Shown here in pieces: positions 18,533-39,598 of a DNA stretch of 64,000 bases. A program made the position numbers and the translations under genes. The notes under the pieces were generated by a model. It did not search any database. It was not told the origin of the DNA and was given only the letters and a program-made list of their open reading frames with translations. Source of the DNA: Dehalococcoidia bacterium (GTDB lineage Bacteria > Chloroflexota > Dehalococcoidia > Lucifugimonadales > SAR202-VII-2); the NCBI GenBank assembly GCA_965263165.1, contig OZ253584.1, positions 1,138,401-1,202,400 on the forward strand, read 5' to 3'. Position 1 is the stretch's first letter, and each line of letters opens with the position of its first letter.

Positions 18533-19039
18533 ACCCATGAAATGGGCCACCGGCCCGCTTCTCTTCCTTGGAGCCTGCCGCATACATCTTGGACAGGGGG
18601 CTAACCATAGAGAAGCCTCCTGTGGCGGCGCATCTGGGAAACGTCCCTCAGACCCACGACCGTCCGAAGAAAGGCGAGACCAGTGCCAATGCCGTTTCCA
18701 GACAAGCCCCTTGCAGCCGCGCGGCTCCGCCGCGGTTCGCTGCGCTTCAGCGACAACTGCACGACGGTCCATCACAGCTCGCTGACGGCTCCTGACGCCT
18801 TGGTGACGCCATTGTGACGGCTCCGTGCCTGGAAACCCCCGAAATCCGGCAGAGAAATATTACACATACAATCAAAGGAACAACATTCAATCAAAGGCGG
18901 CGCCGCATCTGTCCCCAAAGGCCCTACCCCGGGAACTGCCGGCGGCGGGCGGCCCACTCCACCACGTCCCTTGCGCGGGACGGGTCGAAGCTTTCCTCCA
19001 CCCACGTGAAGATGGAGACCGTGGACGGACGCTTCCGCC

Positions 19040-35887: not shown

Positions 35888-37402
35888 TCAGCCCGCCAGG
35901 TCGCGGGCGTTGACGATGGCTCTGAGCTTGGCCACTGCAGTCTGGGGGGATGCGACAGGAATGACTGCGAAGGTTGCAAATCCGCAGTCCGGAGTGAGCA
36001 GGACTCGGTCTGCTCCGAAGAGGTCGATGGCGCGGGTTATTCGCCGGCGAATGTCCGCAACGCCCTCCACGAGATCGAGTTTCTGGTTGACCACGCCAAC
36101 CCCGACGCGTTTGTCGCTGGGCAGACTGCGCAGCACCTCCAACTCCCCGGCGCGCGGGGTGCATAGTTCGAGGAGCAGAACGCCTACGTCGACTTGACGA
36201 AAGGTATCCAGAAGGGGCCGGTAATCGCCGGCAAGAGCGGCTGACTCGTTCCGGGTCCAGTTGCCCCGGCAGACGTGCAGTCCCAAGCGTTCCGCCGGGA
36301 GGCCTCGGACGACCTCGTTGAGCAACTCCACGGCAAAATCAAGCTCCGGCGCCGGTTCCAGCTTCTCGCTCAGGGCGCCGCACGTGAACGTGCGGTTTCC
36401 GCTGGCGCCACCGAACACCACCTCGGTGAGGACCGGCTCATCGAACTGCACCAAGGCAGCCCCCGACGCGAGGAGGAAGTGCAACTCCTCCCGCAGCACC
36501 CGCACAACATCTTGGGCCAGCGCTTCGCGGGTCGGGTACGGAAGGTCTGTGAGGCAGTCGAGCCACATCGTGCGCGTCAGTAGGTAGGGTCCGGGTAACG
36601 CCACCTTGACTGGCTTATCCGTACAGGCCCGGGAGAACTCGAACTCGTGGACCGCCAGGGGCTGGCTCCTCCCCAGGCTGCCGTGGACTACTGGGTGCCG
36701 CACTTCCCCTGCCGGGACATCCAGGGCGCGGAGTTCCCTCTCGAACTTCTCAGGGTCATCCACCATCGCCGTCAAATCGCTCAGTGGAATGAGTTGACAG
36801 TTGTCCAGCAAGCCGCCCACAAAGCTGGCGTAGCTGTCGCGGCGCTGTTCCCCGTCGGTGATCACGTCGACGCCGGCGCGGAGTTGAGCGGCGATGGAAA
36901 GCCTGGCGCCGTCGTCTGCCGTGGCTTGAAACTCCGTATCCCCGAGCCTGCCTTCCAGCCGGTCGTGCATTGCCTGGAGCAACCAACGCGGCCTTGGCCA
37001 ACTGCCGATGCCCATCACCGACAGCGGCTCGATCCTGGGCGCGGGCGCGGGCGGGGATAGGGTGGCGGGAATGGATACCGCGACGCTGCGCTGTTTGCCG
37101 ACGGAGCGCGCGGCTGCGACGCCCGGCGTCTGGCGGCGTTCGGCCAGTGAACCTTTACAAATGAGGTAGCTGCGCTGTATGCCGGACTTTGTCCAGGAGA
37201 CCAACTCGTTCTTGGTCAACCGGCACCAGGCGGGCAGTTCAACTTCGACCGTGGGGTCGGTGGACAGGATTTCCAGAAGTCCACCCCGTTCCAGAGGGTC
37301 GATGTGCCGGCGGATCAGGAGTAGCAGCCCACCCCCGCAATCCAAATCGCCGCCGTCGAAGCTAACGTCTGGCTGGTGCTGGCGCCGTTGGATGGGGTCC
37401 AT
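35888..37402 (-). CDS. TusA-like domain fused to a cobalamin-independent methionine synthase (MetE C-half)-like Zn enzyme
   Basis: N-terminal DGGDLDCGGGLL...LPAWCRLT; C-terminal GIGSWPRP, TDGEQRR, FDEP, HVCRGN and PDCGF (Zn ligands His-x-Cys, Cys). Confidence 0.85.
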   Translation of the reverse strand: MDPIQRRQHQPDVSFDGGDLDCGGGLLLLIRRHIDPLERGGLLEILSTDPTVEVELPAWCRLTKNELVSWTKSGIQRSYLICKGSLAERRQTPGVAAARSVGKQRSVAVSIPATLSPPAPAPRIEPLSVMGIGSWPRPRWLLQAMHDRLEGRLGDTEFQATADDGARLSIAAQLRAGVDVITDGEQRRDSYASFVGGLLDNCQLIPLSDLTAMVDDPEKFERELRALDVPAGEVRHPVVHGSLGRSQPLAVHEFEFSRACTDKPVKVALPGPYLLTRTMWLDCLTDLPYPTREALAQDVVRVLREELHFLLASGAALVQFDEPVLTEVVFGGASGNRTFTCGALSEKLEPAPELDFAVELLNEVVRGLPAERLGLHVCRGNWTRNESAALAGDYRPLLDTFRQVDVGVLLLELCTPRAGELEVLRSLPSDKRVGVGVVNQKLDLVEGVADIRRRITRAIDLFGADRVLLTPDCGFATFAVIPVASPQTAVAKLRAIVNARDLAG

Positions 37403-37442
37403 CAGGAGTCTCTCGGACCTACGGTGTGGGCGGGAGCACCAG

Positions 37443-37805
37443 TTAAAAGCTAATTGAAGGGCTGTTGTCCGACAGGAACTCCACCAGCACAGCGCCGCCG
37501 ACGATTCGGGCCCCATCCACCAAGTTGTCGGGGTCCAGACCGCGTTTCTTGAAGCAAGGGGCGCACACGTAGATGGTCCCGCCGACGGACGCAAAGTTGT
37601 CCATGAGTTCCTTGAGGGGGAGGAATCCCTCCTCGTGGATAGCATCGGCGTAACCCTTTTGGGCGAGCTGGACCCCCTCAGTGCTGAGGAAGACCATGGC
37701 GTCCTTCTCCGAGCCAAGCGCGGCGTTGGCTATAACGAAAGCGACCGTTGCTTTGTCGGTATTGTCCTTGGCGCAGGTGAGGTTAACACAGAATTTACCA
37801 GACAC
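37443..37805 (-). CDS. DsrE/DsrF-like protein
   Basis: VFLSTEGV...GGTIYVCAPCFKKRGL...GARIVG. Confidence 0.85.
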   Translation of the reverse strand: MSGKFCVNLTCAKDNTDKATVAFVIANAALGSEKDAMVFLSTEGVQLAQKGYADAIHEEGFLPLKELMDNFASVGGTIYVCAPCFKKRGLDPDNLVDGARIVGGAVLVEFLSDNSPSISF

Positions 37806-37835
37806 AATGCACTACTCCGTCTGAAGTGATGGGGA

Positions 37836-38051
37836 CTATTTCTGCTCGATCCAATAGTTCGGGTGTTCCGCCCGGAGTAACCGGCGGCCGGTCAAACGGC
37901 ACCACGCTGGCAGGTCGACGGGGGCCCCCATGTCCTGGGAAGTCAGCTTGAGGACCTGACCGGCTTCCAGTTTTTGCATCCGAATCCGAAGCAGGATGAT
38001 GACCTCGCCGCAACCCATATGACCCGCGTCCCACTGGTCAGCGACATGCAT
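37836..38051 (-). CDS. TusA/SirA-family sulfur carrier
   Basis: WDAGHMGCGE...LEAGQVLKLTSQDMGAPVDLPAWCRLTG; start uncertain (ORF track 38180). Confidence 0.8.
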   Translation of the reverse strand: MHVADQWDAGHMGCGEVIILLRIRMQKLEAGQVLKLTSQDMGAPVDLPAWCRLTGRRLLRAEHPNYWIEQK

Positions 38052-38854
38052 TTCCTCGCGTGGGTCTTCCGGGCCGGCGCCGTCTCCGAACCCCCGATCG
38101 TTCAATGCAGTGGTGCTCCGGGCTATTCGCTCCACAGGGAGCTTCCCGAGCGGCCTGTGGCGGATGTCAAAGTATAGCAAACAGGCGAACAGTCAATCAA
38201 CGACGCGTTTTCGTCGAGGCGTGTTCGTTCAGATACCTGTGAGACAGGCAGGGCGATGGGGGCCTGCCGCCAGCCAGGGACTTGACCCATGACGGCGGCG
38301 CCAAGACCACCTCGAGGGAGTAGTCAGACGCCCAGGCGAAACCGGCGAGGCCAATCCGCTGCGCCAAGTGCGGCAGGCTGGAGTTGTTGGCCTTGCAGCC
38401 AGTGAGCACCTGCCCCCGGCACATGTATTCGGACGGCGGCCGCTGTGTGCGCCGCTTCCAACGAAGAACTTCTTAGTGCGTCCCATGCGGTCCAGCAGCG
38501 TCACGACCTATGCGGCGCTTAGAAGTTGGGGAACCGGTCCAACACGCCTCGCCCCACCAGAGACGCCAGGGCAATCATAAGCGGGATGGTATGACCCCGC
38601 CCGGCGACCGCTGTGAAGAGGGGACGATCCGATACTGTGCGTTTACTATACGTTGCCTGGAGCATATCCTCTCTGGAGGGATGTCAGCCGGCCGCCGCAA
38701 GTCAGGCGATTTCGTTAGCGCGAAAACAACATTTCACAGTGGGGATGCCTTATTCGGAAACCTTCGCCCCGACCGCAGAGAAGCGATCCGCGTTTGACGC
38801 TGCCCACGAAAGCCAGTTGGAAGAGATTGTCAACTAGATTGTGGCGCATCCCAG

Positions 38855-39598
38855 GTGGAGAACTCAGCGGTGACCGAGCGGGATAGCGTTCGCTGCGGCG
38901 CCACCACCATCGAGTATGAGGTGCGCCGCAGCGGACGCCGTAAGAAAACGATCCAAATCACCGTGGACGGCGGTGGTGTCCACGTCGCCGCGCCCTTGGC
39001 CACGCCGGACGGCGAGCTCCGGGCCATCGTTCGCAAGCGCGCGTCCTGGATTCTCAGTCACTCATCCAAGCCGATGCAGGAGGAGGCGCCCAAGCGTTTC
39101 GTAAGCGGCGAGAGGCTGCCGTACCTGGGCCGGAACGTGCGTATGATCGTCCAGTCTGCAGAGGTGCGTTGGCCGGAGGTCCGCTTCGATCACTGGAGGT
39201 TCTGGATTTCGGCCCCAAAGGATCTCGCCGGCAACGAACGCCACGAACGAATCCGGCGGGCGGTCGTTGAGTGGTATCGGGCTCGCGCCGCTGAACGGCT
39301 GACCGCAGGCGTCGACCTTTGGGGCCCTCGGTTCGGTTTGGAGAAGAAGCCGCGAATACTCATTCGCGACCAACGCCAACGCTGGGGGAGCTGCGCACCC
39401 GACGGTACGCTGCGCTTCAACTGGCGCACGATGATGTTGAGGCCCGCCTTGGCCGAATATGTTGTGGTCCACGAGCTAGCGCATCTGACACACCCAAACC
39501 ACTCTGCGGACTTTTGGGCCCTCGTCTCAAGGATGGCCCCGGACATGAAACGAAGGCGTCAGCGGCTGCGGGAGGAAGGCCGGGCGCTTCCCCTGTGA
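38855..39598 (+). CDS. YgjP-like (DUF45, M48/SprT-type) metallohydrolase
   Basis: RKKTIQITV, GERLPYLG, QRQRWGSC, LRFNWR and YVVVHELAH motifs. Confidence 0.9.
   Translation: MENSAVTERDSVRCGATTIEYEVRRSGRRKKTIQITVDGGGVHVAAPLATPDGELRAIVRKRASWILSHSSKPMQEEAPKRFVSGERLPYLGRNVRMIVQSAEVRWPEVRFDHWRFWISAPKDLAGNERHERIRRAVVEWYRARAAERLTAGVDLWGPRFGLEKKPRILIRDQRQRWGSCAPDGTLRFNWRTMMLRPALAEYVVVHELAHLTHPNHSADFWALVSRMAPDMKRRRQRLREEGRALPL

Follow-up and report, generated by a model that had tools for sequence, protein, structure and literature searches.

To our knowledge, enzymes of the MetE fold (PF01717) are known only as zinc-thiolate alkyl transferases, comprising MetE and MesA to MesD, and the only processes that relays built from TusA and DsrE proteins are known to supply are tRNA thiolation, molybdenum-cofactor synthesis, and sulfur oxidation. 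The former include MesD, which serves aerobic bacteria as a core methionine synthase independent of folate (Price et al. 2021, PMC7857596). Proteins of both kinds are brought together in a cassette of three genes in the genome of a Dehalococcoidia bacterium (assembly GCA_965263165.1, contig OZ253584.1, positions 1,138,401 to 1,202,400), a stretch of 64,000 nucleotides (nt) referred to here as the window; all positions are those of this whole stretch, and residue numbers are those of its proteins. The cassette encodes a free TusA-like carrier of 71 amino acids (aa) (38051-37836), a DsrE-like protein of 120 aa with a GTG start (37805-37443), and a fusion of 504 aa that joins a TusA-like domain to a single MetE-like barrel (37402-35888). 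All three genes lie on the minus strand, separated by gaps of 30 and 40 nt, and their coordinates agree to the base with those given by a first-pass annotation of the bare sequence, which had described them as co-directional; the motifs listed there, D.G...CG, CAPC, and HVC...E...PDCGF, were likewise all found in the window proteins. Judged from its sequences and their relatives, the cassette probably transfers sulfur or selenium to or from an amino acid resembling homocysteine, as opposed to serving the usual synthesis of methionine. More specifically, and with close to an even chance of being correct, the operon may be a cysteine-based chalcogen relay that ends in a zinc-assisted transferase of sulfur or selenium atoms acting on an amino-acid thiol.

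The MetE-like barrel of the fusion (residues 126-504 plus the stop codon, 35888-37027, minus strand) matches PF01717 (Meth_synt_2) over residues 132-480 with 93.8 bits. The zinc site attributed to it in the first-pass annotation is intact, with the ligands His376 and Cys378 (HVC), Glu412, and Cys473 (PDCGF), and alignment to the MesD structure 3RPD adds a triad of Ser134, Glu185, and Asp321 for holding homocysteine or methionine. All seven residues are invariant in the fused family and align with their counterparts in 3RPD, in which the Ser/Glu/Asp residues have been reported to contact selenomethionine (Price et al. 2021, PMC7857596). In both sequence and fold, 3RPD is the closest solved structure (E-value 2e-22; Foldseek template modeling (TM) score 0.79), followed by the C-terminal barrels of MetE. 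The likeness to MesD thus extends to a single MetE-type barrel of ~340-390 aa, identical His, Cys, Glu, and Cys ligands, and the same Ser/Glu/Asp contacts, and MesD also works with an accessory protein and has no folate domain. However, the fusion is only ~23% identical to MesD, falls into a separate clade (100/98), shares with that clade an RxFxC/UGALS insert that MesD does not have, and is joined to one TusA unit and encoded with another and with DsrE. No DUF1852 protein (MesX) turned up in Pfam and NCBIfam scans of the cassette genes and selected neighbors (loci L076, L009, L058, and L159), among which no dedicated search for it was made. With MetE (TIGR01371), the fusion has in common the fold, the zinc site, and the homocysteine-binding residues of the C-terminal catalytic barrel; in contrast to MetE, it has no N-terminal folate-binding barrel, carries an extra cysteine, Cys341, and belongs to a family in which Cys202 and Cys283 are fixed.

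Although the best NCBIfam matches of the fusion are methionine-synthase models, the curated models all score far under their cut-offs (for example, 149 versus 406 bits, and 60.7 versus 930 bits for TIGR01371). The fusion has no folate-binding half (Meth_synt_1, 13.9 versus 27 bits), and no MetH activation domain is present. By these comparisons, the fusion would fail membership in MetE, for want of the folate half, and in MesD, given its separate clade. The same genome, of 3.1 Mb, holds about 10 PF01717 paralogs. Two of them are adjacent half-size MetE genes (C1:59022-60930), one without zinc ligands and the other with 376 bits to PRK04326, which look like a split MetE; a further paralog (C1:572043-573014) is a MesD-like copy that groups with 3RPD (100/97). 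A housekeeping methionine synthase is ruled out by the low scores, by the patchy presence of the cassette within orders, and by the split MetE and the MesD-like copy in the same genome; together with the missing folate domain, these observations bear out the earlier view that the enzyme is not an ordinary methionine synthase.

Besides the zinc ligand residues, five cysteines are nearly invariant in the fused family, namely Cys22, Cys60, Cys202, Cys283, and Cys341, of which Cys202 and Cys283 are specific to it. Cys341 (TGC codon, 36380-36382, minus strand) is 99% conserved and lies in the motif R-x-F-x-C-G-A-L-S, on a loop inserted ~20 residues after the FDEP strand, where MesD is gapped; the loop falls between the strand of Asp321 and that of His376 and Cys378. 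An AlphaFold2 (AF2) model of the fusion (predicted local distance difference test (pLDDT) 79.5, predicted TM score 0.76) consists of the TusA domain, a disordered linker, and the barrel. The linker (residues 86-125, 37028-37147, minus strand) is rich in Pro and Ala, poorly conserved, and predicted to be disordered, with pLDDT < 50 at residues 93-104. Within the folded domains, the confidence is lowest at the Cys22 loop, at residues 331-350 containing the Cys341 loop, and at the segment after Cys473, as would be expected of mobile parts of an active site.

The character of Cys341 is best seen in a sister branch. An unfused homolog, P0176 (locus L110, 34% identical), has a single in-frame TGA exactly at the Cys341 column. 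A metagenome scan recovered 47 relatives, and TGA occupies this column (SFY-TGA-GALS) in 33 contigs whose products are 54-96% identical to P0176; the nearest relatives beyond this set, at 39-51% identity, have TGT or TGC in the motif SFMCAALS, and more distant homologs do not have the Cys341 motif. Genetic codes 4 and 25 are ruled out as explanations of the TGA in L110, given that P0176 writes all three of its Trp codons as TGG and that relatives have Cys where it has TGA. Downstream of the TGA in these genes, there is a small conserved hairpin (GAUCAAGGUUGAUC), which includes one compensatory pair. Read from the codons and the alignment, the Cys341 column is thus predicted to be selenocysteine (Sec) in a sister branch of low guanine-plus-cytosine (GC) content, forming a Sec/Cys pair, and the window protein represents the Cys form, not the Sec form. 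Such a pair marks a nucleophilic or redox-active residue. Plain methyl transfer has no need of a Sec/Cys residue. Cys341, which the first-pass annotation did not mention, points to S-S or S-Se chemistry (chalcogen transfer or redox) no less than to C-S alkylation. The TGA-bearing contigs (L110-L139, L143, L152, and L153) are metagenomic, with a GC content of 25%-33%, and the Sec form probably represents a selenoprotein family whose genes are cut in two by gene callers. A 2026 review of selenoproteomes lists no MetE-like family, and the Sec-containing branch appears to be a selenoprotein family absent from that catalogue.

In a maximum-likelihood tree, one clade (100/98) unites the fused family (100/100), an unfused Dehalococcoidia form, and a low-GC Cys form, with the Sec form nested within, whereas MesD and, from the same genome, the split MetE and other paralogs fall outside this Cys/Sec clade. 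Such a clade of single-barrel MetE-like zinc enzymes with an extra Cys/Sec is undescribed. Small Cys proteins of the persulfide-carrier or dithiol type are encoded beside every branch. For the unfused Dehalococcoidia form, an OsmC-like gene adjoins in 13 of 14 loci, and a tandem rhodanese is found beside it in this genome and in four others; in the former, the unfused paralog (C1:1015633-1018158), 41% identical to the barrel of the fusion and carrying an FMCAAL motif, is followed by the OsmC-like gene and then the tandem-rhodanese gene. The Sec form is always preceded by a gene for a DsrE-like protein of 113 aa (SCGIC), which matches the C-terminal half of the YedF model TIGR03527 with 110.7 bits (cut-off 110). 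The low-GC Cys form is accompanied by an OsmC-like protein and by relatives of the Rv1679 acyl-CoA-dehydrogenase and Rv1680 substrate-binding protein (SBP)-like families. In two such loci (L142, 971-4636, and L144, 786-4170), genes for an Rv1679-like acyl-CoA dehydrogenase, an Rv1680-like cytoplasmic SBP-like protein, and the Cys-form MetE-like protein occur together, with an OsmC-like gene after the MetE-like gene in L142 only, and the Rv1679/Rv1680-like cluster may be a parallel module in mycobacteria.

The small proteins of the cassette resemble described sulfur carriers to different degrees. The free TusA-like protein matches PF01206 with 32.2 bits (cut-off 28.6) and has the motif D8-A-G-H-M-G-C14-G; the TusA domain of the fusion (aa 1-85, 37148-37402, minus strand; the match covers residues ~10-85) reaches 24.5 bits, under the same cut-off, has an E-value of 6e-5 to E. 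coli TusA/YhhP (1DCJ/3LVJ), and carries D16-G-G-D-L-D-C22-G. The CPxP motif is replaced in the two units by CGEV and CGGG, of which CG is conserved across loci. The replacement of CPxP by D.G...CG, emphasized in the first-pass annotation, is therefore real, and the catalytic Cys nonetheless stands at its normal TusA position: Cys14 of the free protein (38010-38012, minus strand) aligns with catalytic Cys19 of E. coli TusA, the corresponding residue of the fusion being the invariant Cys22 (37337-37339, minus strand). That annotation also pointed to LPAWCRLT, which both units indeed share, as holding a second conserved Cys; this Cys is not peculiar to the family, since Cys51 of the free protein (37899-37901, minus strand) aligns with Cys56 of E. 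coli TusA and is ordinary for TusA. In the fusion, Cys60 (37223-37225, minus strand) is 96% conserved, and the GC and WC of the free protein are kept across 76 loci. A faint similarity (E-value 0.016-0.07) also links the window's TusA units with the N-terminal part of the radical SAM model for the Rv1681 family. The DsrE-like protein matches PF02635 with 50.3 bits (cut-off 22.7); its V-C81-A-P-C84 (codons 37563-37565 and 37554-37556, minus strand) belongs to a V-C-x-P-C motif that is invariant in 76 loci, and Cys81 aligns with the Cys of 3MC3.

The IscS-TusA-TusBCD and Rhd-TusA-DsrEFH pathways likewise encode proteins of the TusA and DsrE folds together, with the catalytic Cys of TusA in the canonical position, and the likeness includes a gene for a SufS-family desulfurase that adjoins the cassette of Paracoccus. 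In contrast to these pathways, the cassette has TusA units without CPxP, a single CxPC DsrE without genes for a heterohexamer, and a predicted end acceptor that is a MetE-like zinc enzyme, not TusE, DsrC, or MnmA. Models of TusD/DsrE and TusC/DsrF give the DsrE-like protein of the window 14.7 and 16 bits versus cut-offs of 89 and 94, and no gene for a DsrF/H-type partner is found at the window cassette. One DsrE-type gene per cassette is the case in the window and in most of 80 related loci, and a second is present only in some Burkholderiales. By sequence, therefore, the carriers would have the TusA and DsrE folds without being members of TusBCD or DsrEFH. Long YedF (TIGR03527, "selenium metabolism protein"), the function of which is itself only predicted, is similar in that it pairs TusA-like and DsrE-like units and co-occurs with selD, but the DsrE and TusA proteins of the window fail TIGR03527, and the units of the cassette are encoded by separate genes.

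The cassette is widespread. Relatives of the fusion number more than 7,000 in the protein collection, the best 120 being 73%-99% identical, and the genome collection has the cassette, at 62%-83% identity, in more than 576 species, which belong to at least 8 phyla. Carriers include other Dehalococcoidia (L001, 95% identical), Latescibacterota, Terriglobia, Rokubacteria/Methylomirabilota, Planctomycetota, Verrucomicrobiota, delta-proteobacteria, and Burkholderiales, the last with Paraburkholderia sp. J67, B. multivorans WS-FJ9, and Polynucleobacter. With genes in the related loci called crudely as longest open reading frames (ORFs), the order TusA-DsrE-fusion is retained in nearly all of 80 loci, and the same trio in the same order in loci from many phyla is an arrangement far beyond chance. 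This neighborhood survey upholds the operon proposed in the first-pass annotation and shows the three genes to be one conserved functional unit. Among more divergent members of the fusion, those at 47%-61% identity have DsrE directly upstream, and in the 61% case TusA as well; a member at 46% identity instead has two small genes ahead of it, neither with a Pfam match and one weakly ParE-like. The presence of the cassette is patchy, with 28 of 301 Dehalococcoidia and 8 of 301 Burkholderiales, which, along with 64%-77% identity between phyla, points to an accessory module that has spread horizontally and is strongly constrained. Literature searches on TusA/DsrE with methionine synthase or MetE, on OsmC with rhodanese, and on Rv1679-1681 found no paper on the cassette, in agreement with the suggestion that the system is undescribed.

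Beyond the trio, no conserved neighbors are common to the phyla; sulfatase, ABC, MFS, and CxxC-membrane genes were considered and are lineage-specific. In five Burkholderiales loci (L053, L055, L059, L076, and L080), genes for a PhnC/PhnE transporter and a PhnD-like protein lie between DsrE and the fusion, with a second DsrE gene upstream; PhnC and PhnE pass the NCBIfam cut-offs, and the PhnD-like binding protein is assigned at subfamily level only. A model for a "putative selenate" transporter was tried on the PhnD-like protein and rejected (71.6 bits versus a cut-off of 250). An MFS transporter is added to the cassette in Oxalobacteraceae and Polynucleobacter, and a CxxC membrane protein with a periplasmic protein is added in Paracoccus and one Oxalobacteraceae metagenome-assembled genome (MAG). 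What individual lineages add to the fused cassette looks in every case like an uptake system. In three Latescibacterota loci (L009, L012, and L014), the cassette stands among four or five sulfatase genes, a cupin gene, and a PhyH-type dioxygenase gene; given that only some of the loci have this sulfatase cluster, its link with the cassette may be coincidental.

Selenium, which the first-pass annotation did not bring up, appears again in the genomes and neighborhoods of the fused cassette. In statistics that ignore phylogeny and the incompleteness of MAGs, selD is present in 28 of 28 cassette-bearing Dehalococcoidia (from about five families), in 6 of 8 cassette-bearing Burkholderiales (no enrichment, Fisher p 0.68), and in 33 of 34 other cassette-bearing genomes from many phyla. 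The total of 67 of 70, set against a background of 75%-77% in the two orders sampled, has a naive binomial p of 9e-6, uncorrected for phylogeny. As proof of a role for selenium, this co-occurrence was rejected; with selD at a background of ~75% and no enrichment in Burkholderiales, it is suggestive only. No selD or selA lies within 6 kb of the cassette in the 80 closest loci. The selD of the same genome (C1:2569551-2570474) is far from the cassette and has one in-frame TGA, meaning that SelD itself is a selenoprotein there, as in most Dehalococcoidia sampled. In three Burkholderiales genomes, those of L076, L080, and L062, the selD matches (G628:C72, G629:C10, and G625:C203) lie in open frames of 551-807 aa, the length of which suggests SelD fusion proteins.

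In Paracoccus, the neighborhood itself is one of selenium genes. On pFER4 of Paracoccus ferrooxidans (L159, 60% identity), the cassette lies within a selenium island that holds a gene for a divergent SufS-family desulfurase, then TusA, DsrE, two membrane or periplasmic proteins, and the fusion, and continues with selA and trxB beside and downstream of the cassette and a tRNA-Sec gene (18575-18668); P. versutus also has the gene. The island also holds an unannotated selenoprotein gene (L159, 2484-3053, minus strand), in which two "hypothetical" genes form one UGSC-type gene when read through a TGA (…VVGLAN-U-GSCTSW…), which scores 87.6 bits with NF041046, under the cut-off of 125. The selenium link of the cassette is not universal but real in some lineages, and it could reflect the handling of selenium or simply the redox character of the family.

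Put together, these observations lend themselves to a mechanism. A homocysteine-type amino-acid thiol would sit on the zinc of the fusion, and Cys341 would form or cleave an S-S (or S-Se) bond with the zinc-held sulfur. Sulfane sulfur or selenium would follow a path through Cys341, the tethered Cys22 of TusA, the CxPC of DsrE, and Cys14 of the free TusA, and reducing equivalents, where needed, would travel along the same chain of cysteines. The transfer may run either way, loading or stripping the amino acid, with sulfur or selenium as the element, and the fusion would not be a methyltransferase dependent on folate or corrinoid. In Paracoccus, the divergent SufS gene hints at a desulfurase as the source that feeds the relay. 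A transferase of this kind is preferred because operon and Cys motifs alike are conserved from phylum to phylum, the zinc site and the triad are kept, and a Sec/Cys pair occurs at Cys341; because the Cys/Sec clade has strong support (100/98) and excludes both MesD and the split MetE; because small Cys partners are found in every branch, with SufS, selA, and trxB by the Paracoccus cassette; and because the cassette is patchy within orders and the genome has other candidates for methionine synthase. Several points weigh against it. An intact homocysteine and zinc site is just what a methionine synthase needs, and methyl transfer is compatible with it; the placement of Cys341 at the catalytic face comes from the order of secondary-structure elements alone; OsmC-type partners are better known as reductases of peroxides and disulfides than as sulfur carriers; and the transporters differ by lineage (PhnCDE-like, MFS, and CxxC membrane protein), so that no substrate can be named. 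Moreover, the literature searched contains no biochemical or genetic experiment on any member of the family. A clade that joins the MetE fold to a TusA/DsrE relay would, if this is correct, give a textbook fold a new type of reaction and sulfur relays a new end-point, and it is present in thousands of environmental bacteria and in some cultivable ones (Paracoccus versutus, Paraburkholderia, and Polynucleobacter).

Other readings of the same residues and partners deserve consideration. In a narrower form, which we consider rather unlikely, the cassette would be a dedicated route of selenium supply, in which a seleno-amino acid or a seleno-trisulfide of homocysteine or cysteine is bound to zinc, Cys341 strips the selenium, and the TusA/DsrE relay passes the perselenide to selenophosphate synthetase. 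If true, selenium from environmental or organic sources would reach SelD along a protected path without release of free selenide, and a functional selenium link would bear on the old question of how selenium is safely delivered to SelD. A further family, the fifth, of core folate-independent methionine synthase, in which the thiol proteins protect or reactivate the zinc thiolate or help the methyl donor as MesX does for MesD, is improbable. It accords with the single barrel and its complete zinc and homocysteine-binding residues, with MesD 3RPD as the closest solved structure and methionine-synthase models as the best NCBIfam matches, and with the varied partners that such enzymes use (Price et al., PMC7857596). 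Nevertheless, those models score far under their cut-offs (149 versus 406 and 60.7 versus 930 bits), the fusion lies outside MesD and MetE in the tree, and the conserved Sec/Cys nucleophile would have no role in simple methyl transfer; the patchy presence within orders and the split MetE and MesD-like copy of the genome point the same way, and among the linked genes seen there is no corrinoid protein, MesX, or methyl-donor gene, MesX not having been searched for specifically.

Doubtful, too, is a (seleno)homocysteine synthase independent of pyridoxal phosphate (PLP), in which a persulfide or perselenide delivered by the relay onto zinc is alkylated by activated homoserine held in the Ser/Glu/Asp triad and the mixed disulfide of enzyme and homocysteine is resolved by the CxPC of DsrE; this is the strict version of the alkylation proposed in the first-pass annotation. 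Such a synthase would stay within the zinc-thiolate alkyl transfer of all known PF01717 enzymes, its product would sit exactly like homocysteine in MetE and MesD, a relay with a dithiol partner suits the delivery of sulfur and the resolution of disulfides, and SufS beside the Paracoccus cassette suggests an inward flow of sulfur. However, no gene for homoserine activation is linked in the loci examined, conserved residues gave no sign of a pocket for a leaving group, orders have the cassette only sporadically, and the replacement of the carriers by OsmC in the sister branches would be left unexplained. Another candidate is a reductase of an oxidized sulfur amino acid (free methionine sulfoxide, S-sulfo or disulfide forms of homocysteine or cysteine, or their selenium analogs), with Cys341 or Sec attacking, zinc holding the leaving thiolate or oxygen, and the CxPC of DsrE, TusA, or OsmC providing the resolving thiols, which thioredoxin reductase would recycle: Sec/Cys pairs are typical of thiol oxidoreductases (table of the 2026 selenoproteome review), the partners are all two-Cys proteins, with OsmC having a peroxidase-type fold, and trxB lies directly downstream in Paracoccus. 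This reading is nonetheless unlikely as well, considering that the known methionine sulfoxide reductases need no metal and that most loci have no linked thioredoxin gene. TusA, DsrE, and rhodanese are, furthermore, generally known as persulfide carriers and not as general reductants.

A riboswitch or RNA leader for the window cassette was rejected, since 33-41 kb contains nothing that matches Rfam at E <= 1, with no control by S-adenosylmethionine or B12 evident. A gap of ~670 nt (38181-38854), with no convincing ORF and no Rfam match, separates the cassette from a divergent M48/DUF45-like gene (38855-39598). A sigma-70-like promoter match, TTGATT-18-TATACT (38171-38200, minus strand), which is a match to the consensus only, lies 5′ of the first gene and is the one such site upstream of the cassette, where 0.4 would be expected. 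On the same strand, ~330 nt downstream of the cassette, are thrS-infC-rpmI-rplT.

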